DNA of 64,000 nt from Candidatus Omnitrophota bacterium (GTDB taxonomy: Bacteria > Omnitrophota > Gorgyraeia > Gygaellales > Profunditerraquicolaceae), in assembly GCA_016208765.1 (NCBI GenBank), contig JACQXK010000021.1, positions 8,053 through 72,052 on the forward strand. Direction: 5' to 3'. Below, piece by piece: positions 4,617 through 24,029 of the stretch. The notes beneath the pieces were generated by a model. It searched no databases, was not told where the DNA came from, and saw only the letters and a list, made by a program, of their open reading frames with translations. Position 1 is the stretch's first letter. Each line of letters begins with the position of its first letter. The translations under genes and the position numbers were made by a program.

Positions 4617-6389
4617 CTACCGAATACCGTTTATTTTTGCTTCATTATTTTCCATTAATTGTATTTCAAAATCCAGATAGTCCATGGTAGTTATTGTTGC
4701 TGGGACTGTGTTAAGAAATATTGCCTTCACCTTATTAGCTGGATGAATTAAATCTAACCATGTCTTAATAATATCTTCAGAGAGACACAATTTATTGGGA
4801 ACATCTACATATATCGTAGTAGTGTTATTGGGTAAGGAATAAACAATTTCAGAAAATTTTTTAAAAAAAATGAATTCGGATTTTGTTTCTGGTCGCCATC
4901 CTTTGATTTTTGTAAAAGGAGAATTAAAAAAAAGAAGTAACATCAAAATACCCATAACTAATGGAATAGCTATAGGCTTGAATAAAAATAAACGGGAAGA
5001 ACAAGCCTCTTTGATAGATTGAAAGCTTTCAAAAAGAATAAACGAGAGAAGAATACTGAAGGGTATTACAGAAAAATACATGTGCCAATTGGCTAAATAC
5101 AGCGTTAATAAATAAAGACTTAAAAGCAGTGACAACCAGATAATAAGAAAAACTATCAATTTGTTCTTATATGAGAGCGGGAAAAATATCCTTTTTTGTT
5201 CATAACTACCTACACATATTAAGCAAATGAAAAAAAAGTATAGAAAAAAATAGAATCTATTTAAAAAACTTCCCCTTTCATCATTTAAATAATTTATCCA
5301 CGATGTAATATTTTTGCCTTCAAAAAGCTGATGAGCTATGCCCAAATAGTTATTTTCTGTTAGCCGCGCTATTAATTGTTCTACAATAAGATAAACAGGA
5401 ATGCTGATTGTAGATAATATAAGCCCAATTATTAGCAGCTTCCCTACTAATTTCAATTTCCCCTGATGTAATTTACTGTAAAGCATTAAAGAAATAATGA
5501 GTGGAGGTAGAATCGTTACAAAAAGCCCTAAAGTAGATGTATTTAAATTTATTAGGTTACCGGGAGTTAGTAAGTAATAGAAATATTCAAAAATAATACT
5601 TCGGAAACCTCTTACTAATGGCTCGTGATATCCACCAAGTAAGCTTTTTAGAATATATAACCGCCAGATAAACAATATGAAAGTTACAATAAAATATGGG
5701 GCAACCTTTTTGATAGCCTGAACTGTCCTGAACTTTGGAGATGCTTCCTCTGAAAATATTATTAGATATGCGAAAACTAATACAGGAAATATAATTGCGG
5801 TCTCTTTTGACCAAAATGCAAGGATATATAAAAATATGGAGGAAAGTAAAAAAAATCTTCTATAAGATGCTACAGAAAGATGCTTCAAAAATAACAATAA
5901 AGAAAGTATTGAAAATAACGGTGACATAAGATCAGCTCTCATACCAACAGCAGTAACGCTATACATATTAACAGGGTGAGTTGTAAAGATAACTGCACTG
6001 ATCCACGCTATGAACTGTTTACCACCTGTAAGCAGCCTCGCTAAGAAGAAAACGGAGATTGAAACTAAAATATGGATGAGCAGATTTGTCAGATGGTAAC
6101 CAAAAGGATTTAGTTTCCATATAGAGTAATCTATTGAAAAAGACAATATCATCACTGGGCGATATAGAAGATGGTAAATCCCTGTTGTCTCAAGAAACCT
6201 TTCAGTGAAAATACGGGAAATATCTCCAAGGTCATGAACTCTGCCTTGATGAATACATTGCAAATCATCACCCCTAAAAAAATATTGAAGCATGTCTTTA
6301 AAGCTAAAAAAGGCAATGAGGCTTATCGATAAAAGCGCAAAGACTGTAAAAAATTGTTGGCTGGTGCAGGCCTTGTGTCCCCTCTTCAA
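4617..6389 (-). CDS. GT-C membrane glycosyltransferase, PMT_2/TMTC-like (DUF1736-type), paralog 1.
   Basis: 590 aa. The motif WKLNPFGYHLTNLLIHILVSISVFF matches the NPxGYHLxNxxLH signature of ArnT/PMT-superfamily TMTC-like O-mannosyltransferase homologs. The protein is polytopic with a C-terminal soluble domain. Confidence 0.7.
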   Translation of the reverse strand: MKRGHKACTSQQFFTVFALLSISLIAFFSFKDMLQYFFRGDDLQCIHQGRVHDLGDISRIFTERFLETTGIYHLLYRPVMILSFSIDYSIWKLNPFGYHLTNLLIHILVSISVFFLARLLTGGKQFIAWISAVIFTTHPVNMYSVTAVGMRADLMSPLFSILSLLLFLKHLSVASYRRFFLLSSIFLYILAFWSKETAIIFPVLVFAYLIIFSEEASPKFRTVQAIKKVAPYFIVTFILFIWRLYILKSLLGGYHEPLVRGFRSIIFEYFYYLLTPGNLINLNTSTLGLFVTILPPLIISLMLYSKLHQGKLKLVGKLLIIGLILSTISIPVYLIVEQLIARLTENNYLGIAHQLFEGKNITSWINYLNDERGSFLNRFYFFLYFFFICLICVGSYEQKRIFFPLSYKNKLIVFLIIWLSLLLSLYLLTLYLANWHMYFSVIPFSILLSFILFESFQSIKEACSSRLFLFKPIAIPLVMGILMLLLFFNSPFTKIKGWRPETKSEFIFFKKFSEIVYSLPNNTTTIYVDVPNKLCLSEDIIKTWLDLIHPANKVKAIFLNTVPATITTMDYLDFEIQLMENNEAKINGIR

Positions 6390-6514
6390 GAATATCCCTC
6401 CAGAAATGTCTTGTTTTATTAGTCTAAGTTTTCATATTTTATAAATTATGTTATATTAATGCAACGTTTTTTTAGCGTAAACAACAAGCAGTTACCTGTC
6501 TTAACAAAATAATT

Positions 6515-7255
6515 GTGATCCAGGAAAAAAAGAAACTATCCATAGTCTCCCCGCTTGCAAACGAATCAGAGACCTTAGAGTCCTTTTATAAGGAAATAAT
6601 CAAACATATCTCCCCGTTTGAAGACAGAATACAGATTAAGATATTTTTTGTTGTAGACAACGCAAGCAAAGATAATACCCGCAAGATCGTGGAGTCTCTT
6701 CAAAAACAGGACAGCCGGGTTCAGCTTGTGTGGGCGCCACAGAACAGATGTGTAGTGGACGCATACCTTGCCGGTTTTAAAGCCGCCATTGAAGATACCA
6801 CTGACTATATTTTGGAAATGGACGGAGGCGGCACTCATTTACCAGGTGAGATACCTCATTTCATTAACAAACTATTTGAGGGATACGATTGTGTCTTCGG
6901 CAGCAGGTTTACAAAAGACGCTGAAATGGACGCAAGTTTAAGGCGGCATTTTTTCAGCAGAGGGGGCACTATTGTTGCAAGAATTCTGCTTGGCATGAAG
7001 ATGTCGGACGCAACATCAGGTTTTGAAGCTTTTAAAAAAGATATTCTAAAAGCTATCATCTCAAAAAAACTTGTCTCTATCGGGCATTTCTACCAGACGG
7101 AAATCCGGTTCAGGGCCAAAGATTTCAACTATGCCGAAGTCCCGATCCATTACAGCAATCCCGTCAATAAAATTCCTTCAAAATATATACGCAATGCTTT
7201 TTACGGGCTGTTAGTCTGCTTCTTCGAAAGGGTCAGGGGTGTTAAGTATGGGTAA
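6515..7255 (+). CDS. GT2 family glycosyltransferase, Dpm1/GtrB-like soluble polyprenol-phosphate sugar synthase.
   Basis: GTG start. The protein has a VVDNASKDNT-type nucleotide-sugar binding region, an EMDGGGTH DxD-like segment and GSRF. No C-terminal TM helix. Confidence 0.75.
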   Translation: MIQEKKKLSIVSPLANESETLESFYKEIIKHISPFEDRIQIKIFFVVDNASKDNTRKIVESLQKQDSRVQLVWAPQNRCVVDAYLAGFKAAIEDTTDYILEMDGGGTHLPGEIPHFINKLFEGYDCVFGSRFTKDAEMDASLRRHFFSRGGTIVARILLGMKMSDATSGFEAFKKDILKAIISKKLVSIGHFYQTEIRFRAKDFNYAEVPIHYSNPVNKIPSKYIRNAFYGLLVCFFERVRGVKYG

Positions 7256-8243
7256 ACAAGCTGTTGTAATAACAACAATTCAGAAGCCTACAAAGGCTAT
7301 TTTAAAAATCGGCAGGCAATTAGGCAAGACATTTGATATTGTAATCGTGGGCGACAAGAAATCACCTCCGGATTTTTCAGCCAGGAACGTAAGCTTCTAC
7401 GGCGTTGAACAACAAGTCAATGTCGGTTCCAGGCTTGCAAAACTTCTTCCATATAATCATTACGGAAGAAAAAATATCGGCTATATTATTGCGATACGAA
7501 ATGGCGCTGAACTGATTTTAGAAACAGATGATGATAATATCCCGTATCAGGATTTCGGGACTAATCTTAATCTTGAAGTTAAAGGGGAATTAATCGCGGC
7601 TAAAGGATGGTTTAATGTTTATAACGAATTTACAGCGGAATATATCTGGCCGCGGGGATTTCCGCTGGAGAAAATAAATCAGAAGGCAAGGACCAGTAAG
7701 GCCAATCGAATAACGAACTGTCATATACAGCAATTTTTGGCAGATAAAAATCCGGATGTTGACGCTGTATACCGGTTAACAAAACCTTACAAAGACATAA
7801 TTTTCAAGAAGCGCAAACCTGTCATATTGGGAAAAGGCACATGGTGCCCCTTCAACTCCCAGAATACCGTAACCTACAAAGAGGCCTTCCCTCTCCTGTA
7901 CCTGCCTTCATATGTCTCTTTTCGCATGACCGATATCTGGAGAAGTTTTATTGCGCAAGCCGTAATGTGGTCCATGGACTGGTTATTAAGTTTCCATTCA
8001 TCGACTGTTTATCAGGAGCGGAATATCCATAATCTGCTTAAGGACTTCGATCAGGAAATCCCCGGATACCTGAAAAACCAACTGATCATCGATATCCTGA
8101 ATACAGTTCACTTTTCAGGCTCTGTGGGAAACAGGCTGTATCAAGCCTATGAGTCCCTGTCTAAGGAAAGAATTGTTGAAAGGAAAGAGTTAAAGCTGGT
8201 GGAAGGCTGGTTGAAGGATTTGAAGAAAGCTCAAAGTTACTAA
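7248..8243 (+). CDS. Putative GT-A fold glycosyltransferase of the DUF288/STELLO-like type. Function uncertain.
   Basis: The ATG at 7248 overlaps the stop of the upstream GT2 (tATGggTAA), suggesting translational coupling. The N-terminal Rossmann-like strand is VVITTIQKPT and the acidic patch is ETDDDNIP. The ORF track starts it at 7239 (GTG). Confidence 0.4.
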   Translation: MGKQAVVITTIQKPTKAILKIGRQLGKTFDIVIVGDKKSPPDFSARNVSFYGVEQQVNVGSRLAKLLPYNHYGRKNIGYIIAIRNGAELILETDDDNIPYQDFGTNLNLEVKGELIAAKGWFNVYNEFTAEYIWPRGFPLEKINQKARTSKANRITNCHIQQFLADKNPDVDAVYRLTKPYKDIIFKKRKPVILGKGTWCPFNSQNTVTYKEAFPLLYLPSYVSFRMTDIWRSFIAQAVMWSMDWLLSFHSSTVYQERNIHNLLKDFDQEIPGYLKNQLIIDILNTVHFSGSVGNRLYQAYESLSKERIVERKELKLVEGWLKDLKKAQSY

Positions 8244-8264: not shown

Positions 8265-9737
8265 TCATTGAGAGATTGTAATTCTGTCGTTCATTAACTT
8301 TATAACTAATTCCACTATCCCCTCATCTTTCTTATCTTTAATTTCAAACTTTATGTCCGAATTCACATTTAGAGGATAGTCCGTATCAATATTCCATATT
8401 GTGTAGTGCGGCACAAGTTTGACGCGATTATCAGGATAATAATAATTCAGGAATTTTTTATAATTACCGTTTTCAAAACAACTGCCATCAGTGATGGGAG
8501 TGGTTCCTTTCGGATAGACATTGACCGGCAGATTATAAATGTGAACAGTAGTCTCCGGTGGCAAGGCCGGAACTATTTCCATCAGCTTATTCAGAACTGT
8601 TTTGCATATCTTTCCGCAATTTTCCACCTCTCTATAATTTTTTATCAATGGAGAATATATAAAAAGATACGCTATAAGACCAAGTGTTATGGCAGACGCG
8701 GTAAAATTTTTAAGTGAAGATAACGGTGTTACCCGTATTTTATTAATAGCGGATTGCAGGTTTCTAACAAAAACAACAGATATTATCCCGCTAAAAGGAA
8801 TTGATGGGATATACGCCTGACGATTATCGATGAATCCAAGTGTGAATAGAAAAATCATAAGAGGCGCCAGCATCCAGATCAGCAATAAAGTTATTAATCT
8901 TCCATAAATTGAATCTGTAAAGGAACGCTTTATCTCCCCCCAGTAAAGCAAAGAAATTAAAACTAACAACGAGAGAATGTGTCGTATGTTTATATGTAAT
9001 CTCTCAACCGGATCAAGCAAGTAAGCAAAATAATTTCTGATGTTCTCAGATACAGATACCTGCAAGCTCTTGCCGTATCCGGCAATTCCATGCAATAGGT
9101 ATGTACGCCACGCAACGTAAAGAACAGCTATTAATAGAAATGGCAGGCATACTTTAACTGCCTTGAACAGCTTTTCTTTATAAGGTTGCCCATTTGAAAA
9201 AACTATCACATACGTGAAGATTATAAGAGGCGTTATGATCGCAGTCTCCTTTGAGCCTAACGCGGAGGCAAAAGAAAGAAGAGAGAGCATAAGACACCAT
9301 TTTTTTAAAGGCCCTGCCGAGGTATATACCAAGAACAAGAAGAATGACAGAAGCATAAAGAAGGCTGGAAGAATGTCCTGTCTGTATGGGATTACCTGTA
9401 CATCATTTGCAAGGATTGGGTGAGTAGTAAAGACAATAGCGCTGAGCCATGCTATAAATAAATTCCCTTTTGTCAAAGAAAACATGATCAAGAAGAAAAG
9501 CACGGAAACCAATACATGATAAATAAGATTGGTCAAATTATAGCCGAAAGGATTTAGCCCCCATATAATATAATCAATGCTGACAGACAAGGCAGTTATG
9601 GGCCTGTAAAATCCGGTGGCCCACGGCTCCATAAATATCTTCGCTATATCATGCAGTGATCCAATGCGCCAATAAAAGATCAGGTATGTAGTATCTATAT
9701 TGCTGAAAAAATAGTTAAGTATTTCCCTGTAAGTCAA
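8265..9737 (-). CDS. GT-C membrane glycosyltransferase, PMT_2/TMTC-like, paralog 2. Candidate ArnT-equivalent of the upstream aminosugar operon.
   Basis: 490 aa. The motif WGLNPFGYNLTNLIYHVLVSVLFF matches the family signature, and the protein is polytopic. Confidence 0.7.
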   Translation of the reverse strand: MTYREILNYFFSNIDTTYLIFYWRIGSLHDIAKIFMEPWATGFYRPITALSVSIDYIIWGLNPFGYNLTNLIYHVLVSVLFFLIMFSLTKGNLFIAWLSAIVFTTHPILANDVQVIPYRQDILPAFFMLLSFFLFLVYTSAGPLKKWCLMLSLLSFASALGSKETAIITPLIIFTYVIVFSNGQPYKEKLFKAVKVCLPFLLIAVLYVAWRTYLLHGIAGYGKSLQVSVSENIRNYFAYLLDPVERLHINIRHILSLLVLISLLYWGEIKRSFTDSIYGRLITLLLIWMLAPLMIFLFTLGFIDNRQAYIPSIPFSGIISVVFVRNLQSAINKIRVTPLSSLKNFTASAITLGLIAYLFIYSPLIKNYREVENCGKICKTVLNKLMEIVPALPPETTVHIYNLPVNVYPKGTTPITDGSCFENGNYKKFLNYYYPDNRVKLVPHYTIWNIDTDYPLNVNSDIKFEIKDKKDEGIVELVIKLMNDRITISQ

Positions 9738-9814
9738 AAAAGCGATAAGGATAATTGACAGGACTGCAATACCAGTGAAAGATGTATATGTTCTCTTTGG
9801 AATTGTCCGAGCCT

Positions 9815-10741
9815 CTACTCTAAGAACTCTTTTACTATAAATATTGGCCTGCCCTGAATCTCTTTATATATCCTGAAAATATATTCACCCATTATTCCGA
9901 GAAATAACAACTGTATTGAAGCTACCAGATATATACTAAGTAAAGTTGACGACCAGCCAAATGGGGCTATTCCAGAGAATTTGCCTATAATGGTATAGAC
10001 AGTTGCCAGAAAGAAAAGTATCACTCCTGCCAGGCCGGTAAAAAGACAAATTTTAATTGGAAAGTTGGAAAACGAAAAAAATGCATCTAATCCAAGGTTG
10101 AATAATTTACCGAAATTCATTTTTGCTTCTCCGGTCATTCTGTCAGGCCTGAAATATTCTATATATCCCTGTCTAAACCCGACAAAGGACCTCAAACCCG
10201 GCAGATATCTGTTTCTTTCCTTAAACGATAAAAGGGCGTTTAAGGCTTTACGGTTAAGCATTGAAAAATTCCCGGCGTCAGAATCTGTATCTATTTTTAT
10301 AATATTTTTAAAGAAAATATGGAACACTTTAATGAACAGATTCTTTGGAAACTTTTCCTGCCGCCCGGTTCTTTTGCCGTATACAATATCGTAGTCCCCG
10401 TTAATCAGTTTTTCATACATTTCCTTTATCAATTCAGGCGGGTCCTGCATATCTCCATCCATCATTGCAATATACTCGCCTTTGGCATATTCTAAGCCTG
10501 CGGTATAAGCTGCCTGATGACCAAAATTTCTGGCAAGCATTAGAACTTTAAAGCGGTTATCTTTCTTATGGCATTCAATTAATTTGCTTAAGCTCTTATC
10601 TGAACTCCCGTCATCAACGCAAATAATTTCAAACAAATCCGTTATTTCTTTTAGAGCATTAATGCTTCTTTCAAAAATCTCTTTAATCAGATCTTCTTCA
10701 TTAAAAACAGGTATGACTAAACTGATAAGAGGTTTCGACAT
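9815..10741 (-). CDS. GT2 polyprenol-phosphate glycosyltransferase (ArnC/GtrB-like) with C-terminal TM helices.
   Basis: The N-terminus is LISLVIPVFNEE, followed by VDDGSSD and MDGDMQDPPE (DxD). There are two C-terminal hydrophobic helices. 308 aa. Confidence 0.85.
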   Translation of the reverse strand: MSKPLISLVIPVFNEEDLIKEIFERSINALKEITDLFEIICVDDGSSDKSLSKLIECHKKDNRFKVLMLARNFGHQAAYTAGLEYAKGEYIAMMDGDMQDPPELIKEMYEKLINGDYDIVYGKRTGRQEKFPKNLFIKVFHIFFKNIIKIDTDSDAGNFSMLNRKALNALLSFKERNRYLPGLRSFVGFRQGYIEYFRPDRMTGEAKMNFGKLFNLGLDAFFSFSNFPIKICLFTGLAGVILFFLATVYTIIGKFSGIAPFGWSSTLLSIYLVASIQLLFLGIMGEYIFRIYKEIQGRPIFIVKEFLE

Positions 10742-10791: not shown

Positions 10792-11508
10792 CTATAATTT
10801 CCGGGCAATCAGCAGGACCGATTTGCCTACCCTGTAACATAGCAGAGGATCAAATAATTCTGACATTCTGATTATTACCCTGTCCCAAAATAAGATCTGT
10901 TTAATTGACGGATAACTCTGCCTCAAAAACAACTTATTGGCTAATGATGCTGTCAGGCCTACTGAATCTAAATAGATAGCCTTTATGATATTAAAACCAT
11001 GTGGTACGATGGACATGAGTTGTTTTCTTGTATAACGCCTGAGATGTCCTATCGCCCTGTCAAATGGAGTATAAAGAAACTGGTGCGCAGGCACAACAAT
11101 CATCAACACACCGTTTGCATCAAGGTATTTCTCAGCTAAACCAAGCTCTGCCTTATCATCTTCAATATGTTCCATTACATCGATATAAATTATAGCGTCA
11201 AATAATTGCCCTAACGGCATGTCCTTCAGTGTGCCAACCTTACATCTGCAGCATGGGGGCAGATTGCTTTCAGCTATCTGTTTATTTATATTTTGGGCCA
11301 GATTCGGGTCAGGTTCCAAACATACCCATTCATCCTGTGAACCGTCGCATAAAGACAATGTGGTGCCGCCGATGCCGGCGCCCACTTCCAGTATTCTTCC
11401 TTTTAAATATTCCCGTAAAAACCCGCCGTAGTATCTTTTCCAGTTTACCGCTTTATCAAAGATAGTGAGTTCATCCCCTATGTACTTGTCAGGACTCTCA
11501 TTTACCAT
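10792..11508 (-). CDS. Class I SAM-dependent methyltransferase. Candidate sugar N- or O-methyltransferase.
   Basis: It carries the LEVGAGIGGTT glycine-rich SAM motif. At 238 aa it matches the size of TylM1/DesVI-type enzymes. Confidence 0.75.
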   Translation of the reverse strand: MVNESPDKYIGDELTIFDKAVNWKRYYGGFLREYLKGRILEVGAGIGGTTLSLCDGSQDEWVCLEPDPNLAQNINKQIAESNLPPCCRCKVGTLKDMPLGQLFDAIIYIDVMEHIEDDKAELGLAEKYLDANGVLMIVVPAHQFLYTPFDRAIGHLRRYTRKQLMSIVPHGFNIIKAIYLDSVGLTASLANKLFLRQSYPSIKQILFWDRVIIRMSELFDPLLCYRVGKSVLLIARKL

Positions 11509-11511
11509 ATT

Positions 11512-12249
11512 TTATTTTCTTGCAATACAAAATACGGACAATCCGAAAGGGAATCTTATTCCAGACATTATTAAAAAGTTCTCAATAGATAGCACTCCCG
11601 TAAGTATTTTATTGAACACCCCCGGCAATGGTTTCAGGTCGGATTCTATATGTTCTGCACTCATAAAAAACATCTCTAAAATTCTCTTAATAAAAGCTGC
11701 TGGAAAGAGAACTGTATTCCTGTAGGTCAATTTTTCAATGCTAAATCCGGCTTTTTCAATTTTTACTAACAGTTCTTTGCAGGTATACCTCCGCCTGGTA
11801 TGAACAGCTATATCATGCCTTCCTCTAAGAAAATTATAAGCCGGCACATTCAAGACAACTATCCCGTTCTTATTTACAACCCTGTAAAACTCCTGTAATG
11901 CTTTCAAATCGCTATAGACATTTGCATGATACAAAACATCCAGCGATATAACTACATCAAAGGAGTTGTCGCTGAACGGGATATTGCAGATTGATCCTTG
12001 TACGATATTATTTAATCCTCTCTTTTGGCAAAATTGAATTGCCTCTTCTGAGAAATCCAGTCCGCTTGCATCATATGCCTTGCAGCTTTCCAATGTCTTT
12101 CCAGTACCGCAACCGGCGTCCAGTATTTTTAAATTTCTTTCTTTTGATGCAAACTTATCAATCGAGGAAAACACCAATTTTCTTAAGCCGACGTACCACC
12201 AGTAACTATCTTCAATTTGGTACATTACTTTATACTCTTCTTTTTCCAT
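11512..12249 (-). CDS. Class I SAM-dependent methyltransferase. Candidate sugar N- or O-methyltransferase.
   Basis: SAM motif ILDAGCGTGKT. 245 aa. Confidence 0.75.
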   Translation of the reverse strand: MEKEEYKVMYQIEDSYWWYVGLRKLVFSSIDKFASKERNLKILDAGCGTGKTLESCKAYDASGLDFSEEAIQFCQKRGLNNIVQGSICNIPFSDNSFDVVISLDVLYHANVYSDLKALQEFYRVVNKNGIVVLNVPAYNFLRGRHDIAVHTRRRYTCKELLVKIEKAGFSIEKLTYRNTVLFPAAFIKRILEMFFMSAEHIESDLKPLPGVFNKILTGVLSIENFLIMSGIRFPFGLSVFCIARK

Positions 12250-12256
12250 ATACCCT

Positions 12257-13366
12257 TTAATCTATCTGAGACAAGATATCATGTAATGAATCGGCCACTG
12301 TCTTTTGCTCCTTTTCCGTTAAAGAAGGATACATAGGCAAGGAAAAAATTTCGTTTGCAGCCTTCTCTGTATGCGGCAGGTCGCCTGTTTTATAGCCTAT
12401 GAACCCGTAGCCGGTCATTGTATGGATCGGCCATGGGTAACTGATATTAACAAGAATATCTCTTTTTTTCAGCTCTGCAATAATTTGATCTCTCTTTAAA
12501 TGACGGCAAACATATAAATAATAAGCGTGACTGTTTCCGGGCGATGTTTTGGGTAGGATGAGATTTGTATCTGACAACAACTGATCATATTGTTGAGCAA
12601 GAAAATCTCTGCGTTCTATGTATTTTTCAAGATGCTTAAACTTGCTCATAAGAATAGCGGCATGAAGCTCATCAAGTCTTGAATTGTATCCGTGTTCTAC
12701 CGAGTAATAAGCTTTTTCCATGCCATAAAAACGAAGACGGAGCAGTTTCTTGTATAGCGCTTCATCATTTGTCAATACCATGCCGCCATCTCCATAGCCG
12801 CCGAGAATCTTGGTCGGATAAAACGAGAAAGACGATATATCGGACATTGAACCAGCCTTTTTCCCGTTAAAGGCGGCTCCGTGACTCTGGGCGCAGTCTT
12901 CAAGGACTTTTAATCCGTAAGCGTCAGCCGCCTGTTTAACATCATCCATATTGACGCATTGGCCGTAGAGGTGAACCGGTAAAATACATTTTGTTTTTTT
13001 TGTAATCGCTTTTTTCAGCAAAGAGGTGTCCATGAGATAGGTTTCCGGATCTATGTCAACGAATCGTGGAACTCCTCCGGTAGAAACAATAGCTGATACT
13101 GTGGGCACGGCGGTATTAGACACGGTGATCACCTCATCTCCAGATCCTATATCTAATGCCTTAAGCCCGAGAAAAATGGCATCTGTGCCGCTGTTGACTC
13201 CTACTCCATATTTTACGCCACAGTATTTTGCAAATTCCTCTTCAAATTTCTTTACGTTCTCACCGAGTATTAATACTCCGGATTTTAATACTTTTTCAAT
13301 CGCAGCATGAATTTCGTCTTTTTCATTCTCATACTCGCTGAGGTAATTCCAAACTTTTATCGTCAT
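12257..13366 (-). CDS. DegT/DnrJ/EryC1/StrS family PLP-dependent NDP-sugar aminotransferase.
   Basis: The regions GVNSGTDAIFLGLKAL and DEVITVSNTAVPTVSAI are typical of the family, as is the overall architecture. 369 aa. Confidence 0.9.
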   Translation of the reverse strand: MTIKVWNYLSEYENEKDEIHAAIEKVLKSGVLILGENVKKFEEEFAKYCGVKYGVGVNSGTDAIFLGLKALDIGSGDEVITVSNTAVPTVSAIVSTGGVPRFVDIDPETYLMDTSLLKKAITKKTKCILPVHLYGQCVNMDDVKQAADAYGLKVLEDCAQSHGAAFNGKKAGSMSDISSFSFYPTKILGGYGDGGMVLTNDEALYKKLLRLRFYGMEKAYYSVEHGYNSRLDELHAAILMSKFKHLEKYIERRDFLAQQYDQLLSDTNLILPKTSPGNSHAYYLYVCRHLKRDQIIAELKKRDILVNISYPWPIHTMTGYGFIGYKTGDLPHTEKAANEIFSLPMYPSLTEKEQKTVADSLHDILSQID

Positions 13367-13367
13367 T

Positions 13368-14330: not shown

Positions 14331-14341
14331 TTAAACAGATC

Positions 14342-15793
14342 TCAAATAAAACTCAAACAAGAAAGTATGTTTCGTGCTTCGATATTGAAATAATTGTTAT
14401 ATCTTGTAAACTCCATAATTTGACCCAGAGTCATCCATTTATAATTTTCCGGAATATCTATTGATTCGGCATCTCCAAGCTCGACAATCATATTTTTGTT
14501 TTGCCAATGATAAAACCGCCCTCCTTCTTCGGACTGAATAGAAGAGTATCTTATCCTGTTTGGGGCGGCTTTCATAAAAAGATCCAGAAACAGCGGTTTA
14601 ATCGCGAGCTGCATTCTGTATTCGGCATCGGCGCATGATACCGTAGGGGCCATTTCCACAACGTCAAGATTACCGGGTTCCGGCTTTCCCTGAACCAGAA
14701 AATGGAGCACGCCGTTTATTTTTTTAGTTAGAAACCCTATTAGACCGTAGGAATAATGCTTCAATAGAGGCTGGGTCCAGCTTAACACCTCGCGGCTCCC
14801 TGCAATTACCGAAACCGCAATCACGGAAAAGAAATGTCCTGACTCATGATAAATCTCTCTGTCCGTATGTATCCAGCCTGATACCGCTTTTAAAGGAATG
14901 CTCCCGACCTTTATTTCATATCTCGTTTTTAATTCCGTAAACCAGCTTATTATCTCATCCGTGCTGTGAAGTGCGTGTCCTCTATCAAGCATTGAAAGAA
15001 ATATATCTTTGCAAAACCCTTTGAGTCTGTGGTCAAACAATTTTATCTCGTCGGGTTCGTTTGACAGCAGATATTCATGATCCTGCCTCAGTTCATCATC
15101 GATAAAGGGTATTCTTGATATTACCGATCTGGCATCCATGTTCACGAAATTGTCAGAGGCCAGAAGCTTCTTGATTTGTCCCAGTGTCAGCCATTGGAAG
15201 TCGTCATGCAAATAAATATCATCGTCTACCTCTATGATCATGTTCCGATTTCTTTTGCGTAAAAATCTGGAACCCTGTTCTGACTGCAGTTGGTCTATCA
15301 GTATTTTTGATTTTGATCTGTCCAAGAAATACTCGAGATAAGCAGGCAGCTTGCCTTGATGCACCTGGGTGTAATTGCTTTTGGTGGCTTGAACGGTGGG
15401 CGATAACTGATTGATATTTATATTGCCAGGCTCCATCTTGGCCTGCATGAGAAAATATCTGCAGCCGTCGAATTTCTTCGTTATTATCCCGAGAATTCCA
15501 ATCTCCGGTTGACTGATAATGGGTTGTTCCCATTCCCTGACGGACCCGCAATTAGTATGCACCCTTATTCCTTCAACCGTGAAAAATTTCCCGGAATCAT
15601 GAATAAGATTTTGCGAATCTTTCGCGAAGCGCCATTTGTCAAGCTTATCAAACGGAATCTGTTCAACTGAAAAGCGGTTTGCCGTTTCTCTGGAGTGAAA
15701 CCAAGAGATAAAGGCTTCCGACTTCCGGAAACGGTTTTCTTCCGTGAGAGCTGAAAACAAAAAACTTGATTCTTTAGATTCAGCGAAACGCAT
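14342..15793 (-). CDS. NDP-hexose 2,3-dehydratase (EvaA/TylX3/OleV family).
   Basis: 483 aa with an internal duplication. Two copies of the QAKxEPGN-type motif are present (LMQAKMEPGNINI and LVQGKPEPGNLDV), matching the two-domain Hexose_dehydrat architecture. Confidence 0.75.
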   Translation of the reverse strand: MRFAESKESSFLFSALTEENRFRKSEAFISWFHSRETANRFSVEQIPFDKLDKWRFAKDSQNLIHDSGKFFTVEGIRVHTNCGSVREWEQPIISQPEIGILGIITKKFDGCRYFLMQAKMEPGNININQLSPTVQATKSNYTQVHQGKLPAYLEYFLDRSKSKILIDQLQSEQGSRFLRKRNRNMIIEVDDDIYLHDDFQWLTLGQIKKLLASDNFVNMDARSVISRIPFIDDELRQDHEYLLSNEPDEIKLFDHRLKGFCKDIFLSMLDRGHALHSTDEIISWFTELKTRYEIKVGSIPLKAVSGWIHTDREIYHESGHFFSVIAVSVIAGSREVLSWTQPLLKHYSYGLIGFLTKKINGVLHFLVQGKPEPGNLDVVEMAPTVSCADAEYRMQLAIKPLFLDLFMKAAPNRIRYSSIQSEEGGRFYHWQNKNMIVELGDAESIDIPENYKWMTLGQIMEFTRYNNYFNIEARNILSCLSFI

Positions 15794-15827
15794 TTTTATA
15801 CAAATATTTCATCTCGGTTTTTGTCTT

Positions 15828-16256
15828 TTACGTCAAGTTTTTCTTCACGACGTTAAGGTATTCTTCCCAGCTTCTGATGGATTTTGAAATATTGTAATGA
15901 GTGTCAGCCAATACCATACACACAGCATCAGCGGAAAAATCAAAGATATTAATGAAAATCATCTTTGGAATAAATAGCCCCCGCTTAGCGTCATTCATCT
16001 CAAAAACCCTTGACTCCCTTCCATCACAGAGCTCCATTTTAAACGAGCCGGAAGAAGCTATAACGACCTGGTCAGTTTCAGTATGCGCATGGCCGCCTCT
16101 GGGCGAAACGATATGGTGCATGTAGAAAACCCTCTTTATGGTAATGGGGATATCCCTCTCACTCTCTATGGCCGTCAGGAAGCCCCTGGAATCATTTATA
16201 GAAGGCAAATCAATCCATTTTATATATTTGAAATTCGATTGTATTTCTTGCATCAT
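15828..16256 (-). CDS. FdtA/QdtA/Tyl1a-like cupin, NDP-4-keto-6-deoxyhexose 3,4-ketoisomerase.
   Basis: 142 aa. The motifs are SRGFLTAIE...IKRVFYM...PRGGHAH, and the small-cupin size fits. Confidence 0.65.
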   Translation of the reverse strand: MMQEIQSNFKYIKWIDLPSINDSRGFLTAIESERDIPITIKRVFYMHHIVSPRGGHAHTETDQVVIASSGSFKMELCDGRESRVFEMNDAKRGLFIPKMIFINIFDFSADAVCMVLADTHYNISKSIRSWEEYLNVVKKNLT

Positions 16257-16337: not shown

Positions 16338-17300
16338 CTATAAATCGCTTTTATTCCGGCATTCAAAATATTTCTTTATGATAAATTGCGGCTTCTTATT
16401 AAGAGATAAGAAAATCCTTCCAATGTATTCACCAAGCATACCGAGCGCTATCAATTGTATACCGGAAAAAATCGAGATTGAGACGGATAGAGTTGCAAAG
16501 CCAACAGGCAGGGTTGGGTCCAGTATTTTTTCTATTATATAATAAACTCCAAGCGCCATCCCGAATAACGCAAATACAAATCCGAATATTACCGCTCCTC
16601 TTAGCGGTAATATAGAAAAGTTGGTAAACATATTAAGCCATAATGAGATCAATTTTCTCAAAGTATATCCTGAGCGTCCGTGCTGACGCGCATGGTGTTC
16701 CACTTTAACCTTTCCGATTTTATCTGTGAATTGCAATATTAATCCGTCAATATAAGGAAAGGGGGCCTGATATTGAATGATTTCGTTTATTAAAAATCTG
16801 TTTAAAATCTTGAAACTCGAAAGATACAGATCCTTTGGTTTTCTCAGCATAACATTGGCGACTTTATCATTAAACCAGCTGCCGATATTTTTAAATAGAG
16901 AATCTTTCTTCTTTTCATAATATGAGTAAACAACATCATAATCATTTTCCTGTGCTTTGTGAACAAGTTTAGTGACCTCTTCTACCGGATTCTGAAAGTC
17001 GTCGTCCATAATGACCGCATAATCACCTGTTGCTTTGTTTAAGCCTGCCATTACCGCGCTATGCTCTCCAAAGTTTTTTGACAGAGAATAAAACCTTACA
17101 ATACTGCGATATCTCTCAAACAGTGATACACAAACTTCTTCTGAGCGGTCTTTTGAATTATCATTGATAAGTACTATTTCAAGTTTATACTGTTGGTTGA
17201 GGGTATTGATCAGAACTTCTACCAGCTTACCTATGGTCTTTTCCGCATTATAAACAGGGATAATAACAGATAAAGCAATCGACGGTGTTTTAACGTTCAT
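16338..17300 (-). CDS. GT2 polyprenol-phosphate glycosyltransferase (GtrB/ArnC-like) with C-terminal TM helices.
   Basis: LSVIIPVYNAEKT, INDNSKDRS and MDDDFQNP (DxD) are present, with a C-terminal hydrophobic pair. 320 aa. Confidence 0.85.
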   Translation of the reverse strand: MNVKTPSIALSVIIPVYNAEKTIGKLVEVLINTLNQQYKLEIVLINDNSKDRSEEVCVSLFERYRSIVRFYSLSKNFGEHSAVMAGLNKATGDYAVIMDDDFQNPVEEVTKLVHKAQENDYDVVYSYYEKKKDSLFKNIGSWFNDKVANVMLRKPKDLYLSSFKILNRFLINEIIQYQAPFPYIDGLILQFTDKIGKVKVEHHARQHGRSGYTLRKLISLWLNMFTNFSILPLRGAVIFGFVFALFGMALGVYYIIEKILDPTLPVGFATLSVSISIFSGIQLIALGMLGEYIGRIFLSLNKKPQFIIKKYFECRNKSDL

Positions 17301-17369
17301 ATTATTTTATATGCAAGATGTTAAATTTATTTTAATTATTATTTTATTGAGACCACTTTGTCAAGGAAC

Positions 17370-17414: not shown

Positions 17415-18962
17415 TTATTTCCGGGGGACATAAATGAATTCTGGTCTAATGGCAAGCCCTGAGACCGGCCAAAATACATTTTCATCTTCAAAAGCTGTGT
17501 CTTGTTTTATATAATATTTCTTGATATATCTTAAACCCGGCCCTCTATCCTCAGCGCCGTTATTCGAAGAAAGAACAATGGCACTGAATCTTTTTTCCTG
17601 TAAGGCATTTTCTATTTCACTTAATAATCCCTCTTTGGGTTTGCCTTCATCCCACATTAAAATATCTCGAATTGCTGCTCCATGAGCATAACTTTTTTTT
17701 CCAGCCATAATTGACAGGTAGCCTGAATCAGGAATAAAAACCTCACCTTCTATTTGTTTTATTTTCCTAACCAATTCTTTGCCGGCTTCCAAATCCCTTT
17801 GATTAGGAATGTATAAAGCGGTATTATACCTAATAGGCTCAAGACAAAACTGCATAACACAAATAAGACACAAGAAAATTTTTATTAAAGACTGTCCTCT
17901 TTCAGACACAGTATGTATAGATTCTAAGATCATATTAAATGCCATACCAAATAAGATAGCCATACTAGCGAAAACCATTAATAAAGAATTCTGCCCGCCT
18001 CCCGGATTAACCCGGGATAAACATGATATCCCTACCATATCGATGAATACAATGGAGTAAAAAAGAAAATTCTTCTTGTTTGCATTGAAGAATTGAGCAA
18101 GTATGAAGAATATGGACAAAGCCAACGCAATGGGCATCGTAGGCAATATGTCTTTTTTCCAGAAATGAGCAAACATTTGATCTTTAAAAAAAGAGGAGGT
18201 CATTAACGGCGTCTTTGCCATTGAGAAAAAGAAATAATTATACCAGCCGTCGTGAATATAATTTAAAAGAAATAGTACACTGCCACCGACAATAATTGTA
18301 GTACCAATAAAATAAATAGACCGTCGTAAGTCCCACAGAAGACAATAAAGCATTATAGGCAATGAAACCAATAATGCACTTTGTTTAGTCAGGAAAGCAA
18401 GTACCATCACTATACCGGCGAGAATATACATTATGCTTGAACTTGCAAATTTTACCAGATAAACAACCAGTAGCAAAAATAGCAAAAAAAGTACATCAAC
18501 CCTGCCCATGTCAAACCAACCACCTGTCAGAGGGTATGATGCAGCAAATAAACACGAGGCAAGAATCCCTGCATATTTACTTCTTGTTTCTTTATAGACT
18601 ATAAGGAATATAACGTAAAAACAACCAAGAGATGAAATAAAAGATACAAGTCTTTGTGCTGTGAAGGTTAAACCGATAATAGTTGAGGCAGCGGCTGAAA
18701 TATAGAAATAAAGAGGTGCATAAAGCAAAGGAACATATTCTAATGATGGACTAACATATAATTTCTGTCCCGATCTTATCCTTGTTATTTCAGTTAGTAT
18801 CCCTCCCTCCATCCACTCTAATTCAAATGGATAGTTAATACGGGAAAAAACAATATACAAATATTTTACAACATATAAGATGCCGACTAATATTAATATG
18901 TATTTTGCAAACTTAGCTGTCCAGTTTAAAATAGTTTGATTCAAAACTGTCTGTTTCATCAA
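17415..18962 (-). CDS. Polytopic membrane protein of the YPFELEW family, paralog 1. Putative GT-C-like glycosyltransferase with a C-terminal periplasmic domain.
   Basis: 515 aa. The N-terminal region INYPFELEWMEGGILTE...SPSLEYVPLLYAPLYFYISAA is strongly similar to ORF 24064..25560. It has many TM helices followed by a roughly 150-aa soluble C-terminus. Confidence 0.6.
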   Translation of the reverse strand: MMKQTVLNQTILNWTAKFAKYILILVGILYVVKYLYIVFSRINYPFELEWMEGGILTEITRIRSGQKLYVSPSLEYVPLLYAPLYFYISAAASTIIGLTFTAQRLVSFISSLGCFYVIFLIVYKETRSKYAGILASCLFAASYPLTGGWFDMGRVDVLFLLFLLLVVYLVKFASSSIMYILAGIVMVLAFLTKQSALLVSLPIMLYCLLWDLRRSIYFIGTTIIVGGSVLFLLNYIHDGWYNYFFFSMAKTPLMTSSFFKDQMFAHFWKKDILPTMPIALALSIFFILAQFFNANKKNFLFYSIVFIDMVGISCLSRVNPGGGQNSLLMVFASMAILFGMAFNMILESIHTVSERGQSLIKIFLCLICVMQFCLEPIRYNTALYIPNQRDLEAGKELVRKIKQIEGEVFIPDSGYLSIMAGKKSYAHGAAIRDILMWDEGKPKEGLLSEIENALQEKRFSAIVLSSNNGAEDRGPGLRYIKKYYIKQDTAFEDENVFWPVSGLAIRPEFIYVPRK

Positions 18963-20836: not shown

Positions 20837-20887
20837 TTTTGTCGCCTACGATCCTCATTCATCGTTTATATTGATGTCAAAAATAAA

Positions 20888-22156: not shown

Positions 22157-22232
22157 TGTCTTCTTAAGCGTAACATAACTATAATTCTCTCATGATTATG
22201 GTTACGATCAATTCCTCTCATATAGGCTCTGT

Positions 22233-24029
22233 CTAATCCATCCTTAACGACTTCGTGATAACATTAAGTTTAATTTGATTATCATCTTTTATCATTACAA
22301 AATCTAATGCCTCCCTGCTGACAAAAGCAGGTGGCCCGGTATTAATATTGACTTTTTTAACATAGTTGGTTTTAGAGTTCAAGTTTAACCATGACTTAAT
22401 GCTATCAGCGTTAGGCATAACAAAGTTTTTGGGGTAATTTTCTATGTTAATGGTAACGTTATTTGATAATTCCGGCAGGACTTTCAAGATTTTCATCAGA
22501 AACAACTCCCTCTTTCTCATAGAGTCCTTTAACTGTAAGTTAAAATCGATTATGACATAAGAGCACATTAGAACACTCAGTATAAATATTCCCATACCAA
22601 ACAAACGCTTGACAGGCTTCAGATAGGGGGTCTCAAACCATTCAATAAATATGACGGAAAGAATAATACTAAGCGGAACTAATGGATTGTATAGATAGCA
22701 ATACACAAAATTGGAAATAGCTACATATATACAAAGAGGCAGCAATATCCATATAAGTAAAAAAACTTTTAATTTATTCTTGTATAAAACCGGGAAAATA
22801 GATTTACCGCTACTGCCATAGTTGGCAATCACTACCAGAAAAAGGGTAAAGAAAAAAAGCAACGAATAAAATACATTCAGCAAGAAGAGCCTGGTTATCT
22901 CTAAAAAATTGATTAATGGATGCTCCCGTCCCTGCATTAGCCACTTAAAGAACTGCAAAAGTGGTTTCGGCCCTTTACCGTAATATGCATTTTCCGATAT
23001 TTGTTCTATCAACGGGTAGGCAAAAATAGCACATGAACTTAATATAACGACTGCAATTAAAAATATTATTATTAATTTTATACCACGACCGCATAACAAT
23101 ATTTTCTTGTACAACAAAGAAGAAATCAAAAGAGGAATTAGAGGGATAAAATAAACTATTTGTTTGTTATAGAAATAAAATGATTTAAACAAACTGATAG
23201 GATCTATCAAGTAATCGAAATATTTTAGAACAATGATATCATCCGGATTAAGTTTGTACCCATAATATCCACGCGCTGCATGACCCAGAAGGTATTGACG
23301 CCATGAAAAAATTAATATAGTCAATAGAACATAAGGAGCAACTATCTTTAAAGCGCGCACTATTCTGACACCGGCAGATTCCTCATCTGAAAAAATAATT
23401 AAATATACTAAAACCAAAAATGGCAGAATAATAGCCACCTCTTTTGAACCGGACGCCAGAACATAAAAAAATAACGAGGCAATTAGCAGGCCTTTACGAT
23501 AAGTCCTTGATGGAAGATATTTAAGGAAGGATAAAAAAGAAAGCGCTAAGAACAATGTACTTAAAGTATCCTCTCTGGTATCAATCAGAAGCACAGTATA
23601 TCTGTTAGTAGGATGAACAGCAAAAACAATAGCACTGATCCACGCAATTGACCGCCGCCCACCTGTCAGCTTCATCGCGATAAAAAAAACAAGGATGGAA
23701 GTCAATATATGAATAAGCATGTCTGTTAAATGGTAACCAAATGGATTTAGTCCCCATATATAATATTCTAAACTGAAGAATATTCCAGCTACCGGGCGCA
23801 AAAATACACCCTGGAATGAAGTATCTGCTAAAAGTGGTTTGGTGAAAATATTGAAGACATCCTTTAACGACTTAATTTGGTAAAGTTCAATCAATGAAAA
23901 GATATCGGAAGATGTAAAAAAAGAGCTGAGAATGTGCCGAAAGGTAATATAAATAAGCAGGATTACAGATAAAACCATGAAGGCAGTGGTATAAGGTTTA
24001 TTGGAACTTATCTCTTTTTTATCGTTCAT
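22233..24029 (-). CDS. GT-C membrane glycosyltransferase, PMT_2/TMTC-like, paralog 3.
   Basis: 598 aa. The motif WGLNPFGYHLTDMLIHILTSILVFF is present. Confidence 0.7.
   Translation of the reverse strand: MNDKKEISSNKPYTTAFMVLSVILLIYITFRHILSSFFTSSDIFSLIELYQIKSLKDVFNIFTKPLLADTSFQGVFLRPVAGIFFSLEYYIWGLNPFGYHLTDMLIHILTSILVFFIAMKLTGGRRSIAWISAIVFAVHPTNRYTVLLIDTREDTLSTLFLALSFLSFLKYLPSRTYRKGLLIASLFFYVLASGSKEVAIILPFLVLVYLIIFSDEESAGVRIVRALKIVAPYVLLTILIFSWRQYLLGHAARGYYGYKLNPDDIIVLKYFDYLIDPISLFKSFYFYNKQIVYFIPLIPLLISSLLYKKILLCGRGIKLIIIFLIAVVILSSCAIFAYPLIEQISENAYYGKGPKPLLQFFKWLMQGREHPLINFLEITRLFLLNVFYSLLFFFTLFLVVIANYGSSGKSIFPVLYKNKLKVFLLIWILLPLCIYVAISNFVYCYLYNPLVPLSIILSVIFIEWFETPYLKPVKRLFGMGIFILSVLMCSYVIIDFNLQLKDSMRKRELFLMKILKVLPELSNNVTINIENYPKNFVMPNADSIKSWLNLNSKTNYVKKVNINTGPPAFVSREALDFVMIKDDNQIKLNVITKSLRMD

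Follow-up and report, generated by a model that had tools for sequence, protein, structure and literature searches.

Gene content of the locus

The window, i.e., the whole 64-kb stretch of DNA analysed here, contains three related genes, A, B, and C, surrounded by genes of glycan metabolism (Table 1). Their translations share the motif W-x-L-N-P-F-G-Y-H-L-T-N (WKLNPFGYHLTNLLIHIL in A, WGLNPFGYNLTNLIYHVL in B, and WGLNPFGYHLTDMLIHIL in C), and the homology extends beyond it to the whole length of the proteins, with BLASTP identities of 36% between A and C (E 3e-96), 39% between A and B (E 6e-47), and 40% between B and C (E 2e-52). When the family HMM was run against the 86 ORFs of the window, it retrieved A, B, and C and no others. 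The original prediction of three paralogous ORFs with a common motif is thus upheld, coordinates included, and, judging by their sequences, the three are genuine paralogues. In the database A is present as MBI4707202.1, 'hypothetical protein HY761_04690'; its closest relatives are P0137 and P0135 (48% identity).

Shine-Dalgarno (SD)-like sequences are found 5' of each of the three starts. The TTG start of B at 9737 would remove the first transmembrane helix. Upstream of this TTG, the reading frame continues without a stop for 42 codons, and their translation, ...KRTYTSFTGIAVLSIILIAF, shows homology to the TM1 segments of A and C; no ATG, GTG, or TTG codon occurs within this extension, and the start of B is probably ATT at 9803, with AGAGG 8 nt upstream. 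The DNA of the B region is identical in an independent assembly, where the gene caller shortened B to 455 aa. The extended B is aligned over 100% by its closest full-length relative (P0182).

Table 1. Features of the locus (positions in the window)
Feature	Position	Strand	Remarks
Paralogue A	4617-6389	minus	590 aa, TTG start; long form, 13 predicted TM
Short DPMS/ArnC-like GT2	6515..7255	plus	Divergently adjacent to A
STELLO-like glycosyltransferase	7239..8243	plus	Pfam STELLO, E 5.8e-12
Paralogue B	8265..9803	minus	Probable ATT start (ORF of the original prediction 8265-9737, 490 aa, TTG start); short form, 11 predicted TM
GtrB-like GT2	9815..10741	minus	Two C-terminal TM; directly upstream of B
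NDP-deoxy-aminosugar cassette	10792..16256	minus	Two methyltransferases, DegT aminotransferase, GFO/MocA reductase, NDP-hexose 2,3-dehydratase, FdtA-like isomerase
ArnC-like GT2	16338..17300	minus	Two TM; further predicted polyprenyl-phosphate sugar synthase, same gene string
GT-C of another family	17415..18962	minus	PMT_2-positive, E 1.2e-8
Paralogue C	22233-24029	minus	598 aa, ATG start; long form, 13 predicted TM
GT-C of another family	24064..25560	minus	PMT_2-positive, E 3.5e-8; immediately upstream of C
EpsI and exosortase (EpsH) pair	42547..44063	minus	Pfam Exosortase_EpsH, E 2e-58; DUF3485
Wzx/MATE-type protein	59414-60937		Probably the repeat-unit flippase

Seven GT2 genes were found in the window, and all seven have polyprenyl-phosphate sugar synthases as their best matches. 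The GT2 upstream of B matches Synechocystis GtrB (5EKP, E 5.8e-71) over its full length, as well as ArnC (E 1.4e-37), and its best NCBIfam matches are PgfS (E 2.8e-69, below the equivalog cut-off) and ArnC; it is a predicted polyprenyl-phosphate hexose synthase and the probable donor supplier for B. The GT2 next to A has as its best PDB match the Dol-P-Man synthase 5MLZ (E 3.6e-13), followed by ArnC, and matches PgfS, ArnC, AglJ, and Dol-P-hexose transferase in NCBIfam; it is a predicted polyprenyl-phosphate sugar synthase that probably serves A, and it forms an operon with the STELLO-like gene situated between A and B. The third synthase listed in Table 1 is similar to ArnC (9HWJ, E 3.1e-43) and GtrB (E 7.5e-37). 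No GT2 is directly adjacent to C. Among ten full-length relatives, a small GT2 lies beside or near the family gene in five: directly adjacent in L004, L007, and L009, and adjoining or at most 3 kb away in L011 and L012.

The sugar cassette following the B-linked synthase may provide one of the lipid-linked donors with an unusual sugar. The exosortase/EpsI pair scores above the cut-offs of TIGR02602 and TIGR02914, while this exosortase stays below the cut-offs of all named Xrt types; EpsH is known from exopolysaccharide loci of this kind (PMC1569441), and the presence of the pair identifies the wider locus as an EPS locus of the type associated with an exosortase. A Bac_transf priming enzyme, GT4s, a deacetylase, and a carbamoyltransferase are also encoded here, and the locus as a whole looks like a polysaccharide locus.

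Family assignment

Searches of A, B, and C against Pfam and NCBIfam gave no matches even at E ≤ 1, and none of the three reached the gathering threshold of PMT_2 (PF13231) or PMT (PF02366); the match to the PMT_2 or DUF1736 HMM on which the original prediction had staked the assignment was therefore not obtained. A sequence-profile search of the PDB also found no match, even with 105 sequences in the profile. This absence of Pfam and NCBIfam matches is all that would speak for a chance or compositional likeness, or for ORFs that are not genes, and such an explanation can be dismissed with near certainty in view of the pairwise E values given above, the SD-like sequences, the high-confidence structural model (see below), and the size of the family, whose profile collects 3,441 representatives at E ≤ 1e-30, with at least 150 cluster representatives below E 1e-86.

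Of 80 family members tested, PMT_2 matches seven (E ≤ 0.01; best E 3.4e-9) and PMT three (E ≤ 0.01), and one member has a faint TMEM260-like match. The motif region is the part covered by the PMT/PMT_2 HMMs in relatives such as P0032, P0036, and P0054. Outside the family, the closest sequences are those of bacterial TM+TPR (TMTC-like) proteins, which pass the gathering score for PMT_2 or PMT across the motif region. At 28-43% identity (E 1e-10 to 1e-22), they align with the family over the N-terminal module, which runs from TM1 up to where loop 4 begins, and they have in common with it Y-R-P, G-L-N-P-x-G-Y-H-x-x-N-x3-H, FAVHP, R-x-D, S-K-E, and W-x3-LLP ... RxxY-x-P. Since relatives match PMT_2 and PMT directly and the TM+TPR proteins are the nearest outsiders, A, B, and C can be placed among GT-C enzymes; their putative membership in PMT_2/PMT is only transitive and at the clan level, and the profile-profile similarity of the family to PMT_2-positive neighbours is weak (7% and 31% probability, the latter for the protein encoded at 17415..18962, a paralogue of that encoded at 24064..25560, E 1e-125). 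On balance, the family appears to be an unnamed sister group, without TPRs, to the bacterial TMTC-like/PMT_2 proteins, a useful rather than surprising addition to a known enzyme class.

Fold, topology and conserved residues

The predicted structure of C, a high-confidence model, is that of a polytopic membrane protein and superposes on solved GT-C enzymes, although structural alignment with Pmt4 (9E61) and Pmt1-Pmt2 (6P25/6P2R) gives only 10-13% identity and, as noted, A, B, and C score nothing against the PMT and PMT_2 HMMs. All three have the GT-C fold and are regarded here as putative inner-membrane glycosyltransferases. With its 11 predicted TM helices, the short form B resembles TMTC; A and C, the long forms, carry in addition an insert of about 100 aa with two helices, which both TMTC and B lack. 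The N-terminus is predicted to be cytoplasmic, and a C-terminal alpha/beta domain of about 90 residues (beta-alpha-beta-beta-beta, residues 525-592 in the C model) is predicted to be periplasmic. An extramembrane C-terminal domain on the periplasmic (lumenal) side is a feature of TMTC as well, but there it consists of TPRs, for which no Pfam match was found in A, B, or C. GT136 also has a C-terminal module, in that case substrate-binding (PMC11127046). Unlike PMT/POMT, the family has no MIR domain.

Residue counts refer to an alignment of 156 family members. The eukaryotic TMTC1-4 are GT-C enzymes of family GT105, whose motifs M1, M2, M3, M4, and M7, all with corresponding positions in our family, were defined and rationalised as metal and Dol-P-Man binding sites (PMC7801869). 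Almost no variation is seen in M3 (RxD), M4 (KE), and the YRP of M2: R78 is present in 154 and P79 in 155 of the 156 members, R152 in 150, D154 in 143 (with Glu in ten more), K196 in 149, and E197 in all; R244 is found in 150 and Y447 in 142. D42, six residues after TM1 in the first extracytoplasmic loop, is kept in 144 of the 150 members aligned there, in agreement with the conserved acidic residue (catalytic or acceptor-binding Asp) that GT-C enzymes have in this loop. Several features differ from TMTC. First, the DD of M1 is a single Asp in most members (D-T), preceded by T, S, I, or P; an acidic pair (DD) in periplasmic loop 1 marks the subfamily of A and otherwise occurs in only a few members, and in the comparison with PMT/POMT a DE/DD pair is confined to that subfamily. 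Second, the SHK of M2 is absent and the final Thr of M4 (KE(T/Q)xxT) is not conserved. Third, the Asp of the metal-binding motif DW (M5), which lies in the DUF1736 loop between TM7 and TM8, has no counterpart: C has 'SF' opposite the 'DY' of P0020, and neither A nor B is acidic there. Together with the lack of TPRs and with the DUF1736 HMM (PF08409), which matches none of the 80 members nor A, B, or C, this means that the DUF1736-type label given originally does not hold. The broader attribution to a PMT/TMTC-like branch is retained in part: the HMM coverage of the motif region in relatives, the TM+TPR neighbours, and the nearly invariant M3, M4, and YRP favour it, whereas the missing HMM matches of A, B, and C themselves and the mostly single Asp do not.

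In TMTC, STT3, and PglB, the Arg of M7 (ERxxY, loop EL5) binds the donor phosphate. The consensus of the family here reads H-R-x-x-Y, the R being present in 99 of 144 members, and the residue varies among the subfamilies: B has NRQAY (Arg), A has NWHMY (Trp), and C has YCYLY (Cys). The replacements in A and C could mean a different mode of donor binding or impairment. Together with the absence of DW, the lack of a GT2 adjacent to C, and the presence of PIGU and GAB1, GT-C-fold proteins without transferase activity, among the matches, they leave a small chance that at least one of the copies, A and C in particular, is non-catalytic or has a role other than that of a transferase, acting as a scaffold or heteromeric GT-C partner (cf. 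Pmt1-Pmt2) or in a polymerase- or ligase-like way on polyprenyl-diphosphate-linked oligosaccharides instead of monosaccharide donors. However, D42, R78-P79, R152-x-D154, K196-E197, and R244 are kept in A, C, and their subfamilies, which argues for a conserved active site, and the Trp is conserved across the subfamily of A, which argues for a selected variant rather than decay. Moreover, the M7 Arg is listed only for the STT3, AglB, and PglB structures, and ArnT and PMT are likewise without it (PMC7801869).

On sequence grounds, A, B, and C represent ancient, distinct subfamilies. As these are old, differ at the donor-contact position, and in two cases lie beside different donor synthases, the proposal of distinct sugar or acceptor specificities fits, and the three copies probably use different donors and/or acceptors.

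Proposed function

The adjacent DPMS/GtrB-type synthases imply a polyprenyl-monophosphate sugar donor, a point of likeness to PMT/POMT (GT39), along with the few PMT and PMT_2 matches in the family and the NCBI name of C, 'glycosyltransferase family 39 protein' (Candidatus Omnitrophica). A, B, and C are predicted to act outside the cytoplasm, probably adding single sugars that lipid-linked donors supply, and it is rather likely that they form the GT-C arm of a GtrB/ArnC-type periplasmic glycosylation. On the cytoplasmic side of the membrane, the neighbouring GtrB/ArnC/DPMS-type GT2s would use a nucleotide sugar to charge polyprenyl phosphate with one sugar; the lipid-linked sugar would be flipped across; and on the periplasmic side each GT-C paralogue would pass it to an acceptor. 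The putative active site would comprise Asp42 (loop 1), Tyr-Arg78-Pro79, Arg152-x-Asp154 (loop 2), Lys196-Glu197 (loop 3), Arg244, and the [Arg/Trp/Cys]444-x-x-Tyr447 loop.

A GT2 polyprenyl-phosphate sugar synthase beside a GT-C in a surface-glycan locus is also the arrangement of GtrA/GtrB/GtrC, ArnC/ArnEF/ArnT, CsbB/GtcA/YfhO, and PPPRS/MATE/GT136 (PMC11127046). Unlike these three-component systems, the A/B/C locus has no detectable GtrA- or ArnE/F-type flippase, nor any small 4-TM ORF near A, B, or C; A, B, and C belong to a different, unnamed sequence family; and the density of seven GT2s and at least eight GT-Cs in 64 kb is unusual. In the streptococcal GtrB/PgtC2 and Pgf (PgfS/PgfM1/PgfM2) systems of protein O-glycosylation (PMC12041528) a GT-C partner uses an Und-P-sugar, as is proposed here, and the GT2 beside B has its best matches in PgfS (NCBIfam) and GtrB (PDB); the likeness to A, B, and C is thus drawn from the logic of the systems. 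Those systems are Gram-positive, and the locus described here is of the polysaccharide type.

GtrB-type synthases coupled to GT-C enzymes have precedents with glycan (PMC11127046) and with protein acceptors (PMC12041528). Because A, B, and C lie in a Wzx-type, exosortase-associated polysaccharide locus, we favour a surface glycan, which would be decorated after polymerisation in the manner of GtrABC, ArnC/ArnT, and the three-component systems described by Kelly et al. (2024). The original prediction suggested protein O-glycosyltransferases. As bacterial counterparts of PMT/TMTC, they would modify Ser/Thr of proteins that are secreted or reside in the membrane, among them perhaps the PEP-CTERM cargo of the exosortase, and the small periplasmic domain would handle the substrate in place of TPR or MIR. 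We consider this tentative and rather unlikely, although the closest TM+TPR relatives are labelled 'protein O-mannosyl-transferase' by JGI, in P0007 TPRs follow a body and C-terminal domain that are the same as those of the family, the TMEM260-like match and the exosortase/EpsI pair point the same way, and the streptococcal GT-C enzymes glycosylate Ser/Thr-rich regions. Against it, A, B, and C lack TPR and MIR domains and any other domain known to bind proteins, neither a PEP-CTERM-tailed ORF nor another candidate glycoprotein substrate was found in the 64-kb window, and the genes are situated amid those for polysaccharide assembly and modification. The GT-C complement of the window also includes at least five proteins of families other than that of A, B, and C, additional to those listed in the original prediction.

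Three Diverged Paralogs in the Window

The ORFs A, B and C were found where the original prediction had placed them, and ORF positions and translations confirmed the shared motif in all three (Table). By BLASTP, the similarity extends beyond the motif: A and C share 36% identity over 607 columns (E 3e-96), A and B 39% (E 6e-47), and B and C 40% (E 2e-52). A family HMM compared with 86 ORFs of the window matched only A, B and C. The closest relatives of each are found elsewhere, namely P0137 and P0135 for A (both 48% identity), P0180 (56%) and P0182 (47%) for B, and P0002 (52%) for C. Recent tandem duplication is ruled out, because each copy is closer to proteins of other organisms (48-56% identity) than to its paralogs in the same genome (36-40%); judging from these identities, A, B and C represent three old subfamilies. 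As for copy number elsewhere, the locus of a Nitrospirae relative has one family copy, and another Nitrospirae contig has two, 40 kb apart (loci L007 and L011).

The start of B required correction. The TTG codon at 9737, from which B was first called, corresponds in the alignment to residue 28 of A and C; a start there would remove the first transmembrane segment (TM1). Upstream of it 42 in-frame codons are open, encoding ...KRTYTSFTGIAVLSIILIAF, which is homologous to TM1 of A and C; no ATG, GTG or TTG occurs within these codons (window 9738-9866, minus strand). An ATT codon in the frame of B, at 9803, lies 8 nt after AGAGG and just past the TAG stop (9817-9815) of the GtrB-like gene upstream. 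Probably, B starts at a non-canonical codon or by translational coupling. An independent assembly, in which B was called short, at 455 aa, has identical DNA in this region, and P0182, the closest full-length relative, has a normal TM1 and covers 100% of the extended B. A 5'-truncated pseudogene is ruled out because TM1 is in frame, conserved and preceded by a Shine-Dalgarno-like site and the ATT; the independent assembly also counts against it.

Features of the window and predicted layout of the family protein
Feature	Position	Strand	Remarks
A	4617-6389	minus	translation carries WKLNPFGYHLTNLLIHIL
B	8265-9737 (as first called)	minus	translation carries WGLNPFGYNLTNLIYHVL
C	22233-24029	minus	translation carries WGLNPFGYHLTDMLIHIL
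Short GT2	6515-7255		divergent from A; best PDB match Dol-P-Man synthase (E 3.6e-13), then ArnC
GtrB-like GT2	9815-10741		directly upstream of B; GtrB 5EKP, full-length (E 5.8e-71); ArnC (E 1.4e-37)
NDP-deoxy-aminosugar cassette	10792-16256	minus	NDP-hexose 2,3-dehydratase, FdtA-like isomerase, GFO/MocA reductase, DegT aminotransferase, two SAM methyltransferases
ArnC-like GT2	16338-17300		ArnC (E 3.1e-43)
Exosortase (EpsH) and EpsI-family pair	42547-44063	minus	pass generic NCBIfam models
Seven GT2s	starts 6515, 9815, 16338, 32827, 36340, 40613, 62027		
GT-C proteins, at least eight	A, B, C, 17415, 24064, 28808, 33685, 37125		
TM1	residues 12-35		model and hydropathy
First periplasmic loop	residues 36-95		long, with short helices; TM2-TM7 follow; model and hydropathy
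Variable loop, counterpart of EL4	residues about 249-296		further helices follow; model and hydropathy
Beta-alpha-beta-beta-beta domain	residues 525-592		model and hydropathy

Database Recognition and Family Size

No Pfam-A or NCBIfam model matched A, B or C at E<=1, and their motif region, for which an alignment to PMT_2 or DUF1736 had been expected, matched neither HMM; because of this literal failure, more sensitive evidence was sought rather than the assignment being dismissed. Family profiles of 9 and 105 sequences found no GT-C enzyme among PDB sequences, giving chance matches only (SNF4, NarI, claudin). Since Pfam and NCBIfam miss the family, its members carry the annotation "hypothetical" or a loose "GT39": C is identical to the NCBI protein [quoted passage not shown] on a 106-kb contig, and A is on record as MBI4707202.1, "hypothetical protein HY761_04690".

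A word-indexed search returned few full-length matches, followed by about 270 proteins that match over the N-terminal 20-45% only and carry C-terminal TPR repeats. The latter have the bacterial TMTC-like architecture, and several were named "protein O-mannosyl-transferase" by JGI. The impression of a very rare family, given by about eight full-length relatives, was a word-index artefact and was overturned by an exhaustive profile search against 1.84 billion representatives, which yielded 89,874 proteins at E<=1e-3, 57,263 at E<=1e-10 and 3,441 at E<=1e-30; the best 150 representatives all had E<1e-86 with end-to-end coverage. Two forms occur among these 150: the long one (about 600-660 aa) resembles A and C, and the short one (about 500-570 aa), which the profile matches in two stretches, resembles B. 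The family is coherent and substantial.

Several of the TPR-bearing relatives outside the family are recognized over the motif region above the gathering score, by PMT_2 (P0013, 29.0 bits; P0020, 34.7; P0032, 33.6) or by PMT (P0036, 37.7 bits; P0054, 25.6). When 80 full-length members were scanned one by one against Pfam, PMT_2 matched seven (best E 3.4e-9), PMT three, and a TMEM260-like model, faintly, one. The DUF1736 HMM matched none of the 80, nor A, B or C; the TMTC_DUF1736 match of P0020 was sub-threshold (22.8 bits vs. a cut-off of 27). The earlier description of A, B and C as PMT/TMTC-like GT-C enzymes with three diverged specificities is reasonable; the label "DUF1736-type" is not supported. 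Profile-profile comparison of the family with the five PMT_2-type GT-Cs of the window gave probabilities of 7% and then 31%; the alignment is topologically sensible (TM3-TM6 span, KE opposite Kq) but is no evidence of close kinship. No relationship to the unannotated polytopic ORFs 1393-3045 and 18959-20836 was detected by hhalign.

Comparison with the TMTC Active Site

The motifs described for TMTC are DD in the first extracytoplasmic loop, EL1 (M1), SHKSYRP (M2), RxD (M3), KE(T/Q)xxT (M4), DW in the DUF1736 loop (M5) and ERxxY (M7) (PMC7801869); these were scored across 156 family members. First, at M1 a single Asp (D42) is present in 144 members, followed by Thr and preceded by T, S, I or P; A and the other members of its subfamily have an acidic pair. 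Second, Y-R78-P79 of M2 is near-invariant (Arg in 154 members, Pro in 155), and SHK is absent. Third, M3 retains R152 in 150 members and D154 in 143, plus Glu in 10, and M4 retains K196 in 149 and E197 in all 156. M5 has no counterpart in the family, C having "SF" where P0020 has "DY". Finally, the M7 consensus is H-R-x-x-Y, the Arg being present in 99 of 144 and kept in B; at this position A has Trp, found in 20 members and conserved throughout the A subfamily, and C has Cys. Across the family, the motif block of the original prediction is near-invariant, as is the FAVHP segment that follows it. Overall, these proteins have a TMTC/PMT-like N-terminal catalytic module and, unlike TMTC, neither the defining DUF1736 loop nor the TPR domain.

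In the A subfamily (A, P0137, P0135, P0126) the Trp occupies alignment position C444, that of the donor-phosphate Arg in TMTC, STT3 and PglB, and loop 1 keeps two acidic residues side by side (DD, ED or DE). Trp and the acidic pair together make a coherent signature of this subfamily.

Fold and Topology

The fold is GT-C, because the best 20 structural matches of the model were all GT-C enzymes or GT-C-derived subunits, and a shallower model gave the same families. The PMT family was marginally closest among the PDB structures compared, in which TMTC is not represented. Short loops rich in Lys and Arg sit on the side assigned as cytoplasmic, which would place the N-terminus inside and the C-terminal domain in the periplasm, on the side that bears the TPRs in TMTC. 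About 100 residues of A and C, comprising two helices and a loop, are missing from B and P0005, so that A and C have 13 helices and B has 11. In this respect B, but not A and C, is like TMTC, with its 11 helices (PMC7801869). One relative, P0007, combines the family-type body and C-terminal domain with TPRs after them, and so links the TPR-less and TPR-bearing architectures.

Gene Neighborhood

For all seven GT2 proteins of the window the best NCBIfam models were polyprenyl-P-sugar synthases (PgfS, ArnC, AglJ, PpgS, Dol-P-hexose transferase), all scores being below the equivalog cut-offs. GtrB is a polyprenyl-phosphate glucosyltransferase; the GtrB-like protein encoded upstream of B has two C-terminal TM segments. 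Besides A, B and C, five window GT-C proteins have a PMT_2 signal, which exceeds the gathering score in three, and three unannotated polytopic ORFs (1393-3045, 18959-20836 and 57788-59350) may add to this number. Such a density of periplasmic-glycosylation genes (window 1-45000) is unusual. The window also encodes two EptA/sulfatase-type membrane enzymes, one GT9, a priming phosphoglycosyl transferase (TIGR03025, 424 bits), GT4s, a deacetylase, a carbamoyltransferase, a sulfotransferase and a Wzx-type flippase; no GtrA-like small flippase was found near A, B or C. Exosortases are known in such EPS loci (PMC1569441), and the exosortase/EpsI pair here fell far short of the cut-off for each named Xrt type, the nearest being XrtV and XrtB.

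About 10 loci matching at full length were found in species-representative genomes, in Nitrospirota, Acidobacteriota, Desulfomonile, an actinomycete MAG and Ca. Tritonobacter. In five of them (L004, L007, L009, L011 and L012) a small GT2 gene is adjacent to, or within 3 kb of, the family gene. L007 shares the GT2, GT-C, YdjC, GT9 and carbamoyltransferase neighborhood of the window, and comparison of L007 and L011 with the window suggests that the locus has been exchanged laterally between phyla.

L007, on the Nitrospirae groundwater MAG contig JACQZF010000004.1 (2874-14340), encodes, around its own family copy, a GT2 like that at 36340 (E 4e-107), a GT-C like that at 37125 (E 3e-109), YdjC, GT9 and a carbamoyltransferase (E 2e-233). 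L011 contains, at 15648-17354, a close homolog of ORF 1393-3045 (E 7e-137).

Possible Mechanism and Acceptor

The most economical mechanism would follow the three-component logic established for GtrABC, ArnC/ArnT and the systems of Kelly et al. 2024 (PMC11127046): the GT2 would make a polyprenyl-P-monosaccharide, the lipid-linked sugar would be flipped, and the GT-C would transfer the sugar in the periplasm. The locus favors a glycan acceptor. A protein acceptor, proposed originally, is the minority reading, kept alive by the streptococcal GtrB/PgtC2 precedent for protein acceptors (PMC12041528) as well as by the ranking of folds, the TM+TPR relatives and the exosortase. In its broadest form, which we consider unlikely, the family would comprise widespread, unrecognized bacterial protein O-glycosyltransferases, TMTC/PMT relatives with a compact periplasmic recognition domain in place of the TPR array; in exosortase-type loci they would modify secreted/PEP-CTERM cargo with unusual polyprenyl-phosphate sugars (e.g., methylated deoxy-aminosugars), the Arg, Trp and Cys subfamilies reading different lipid-linked donors. 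A search of all six frames of the window found no PEP-CTERM-like C-terminal tails, the one hit, inside the carbamoyltransferase gene, being spurious.

Bacterial surface glycosylation depends on GT-C enzymes for its extracytoplasmic steps, and most bacterial branches of these enzymes are unnamed. The family, now defined by at least 150 cluster representatives at E<1e-86 and about 3,400 at E<1e-30, is an unnamed TPR-less variant that extends a well-known enzyme class and changes no concept; it is a moderate annotation and experimental lead. The confident structural model, the residue-level motif map tied to TMTC/PMT active sites, with subfamily-specific changes flagged at the donor-contact residue, and the recurring partner, a small polyprenyl-P-sugar synthase, suffice for designing donor and acceptor assays. 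The unusually dense synthase and GT-C pairs of this Omnitrophota exosortase/EPS locus bear on surface building by ultra-small, possibly host-dependent bacteria.

Other Features of the Locus

The pathway of the NDP-deoxy-aminosugar cassette is better known from antibiotic deoxy-aminosugars; here the cassette lies within a surface-glycan locus, adjoining the ArnC- and GtrB-like synthases. A 450-bp AT-rich gap (4168-4616, about 31% GC locally, no ORF >55 aa) separates an Acyl_transf_3 gene from the end of A. Two paralog pairs are interleaved with the GT-Cs: membrane-anchored sulfatase/EptA-like proteins (25602-27578 and 30468-32429; phmmer E about 1e-256) and PMT_2-type GT-Cs (17415-18962 and 24064-25560; E about 1e-125). 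Four mutually related SGNH/GDSL-type proteins are encoded at 20888-22156, 39561-40637, 41463-42578 and 47203-48216, one of them directly downstream of C; some faintly match the Leptospira "LA_2486/LA_2490" esterase families, and the four may be glycan O-acyl esterases or transferases.
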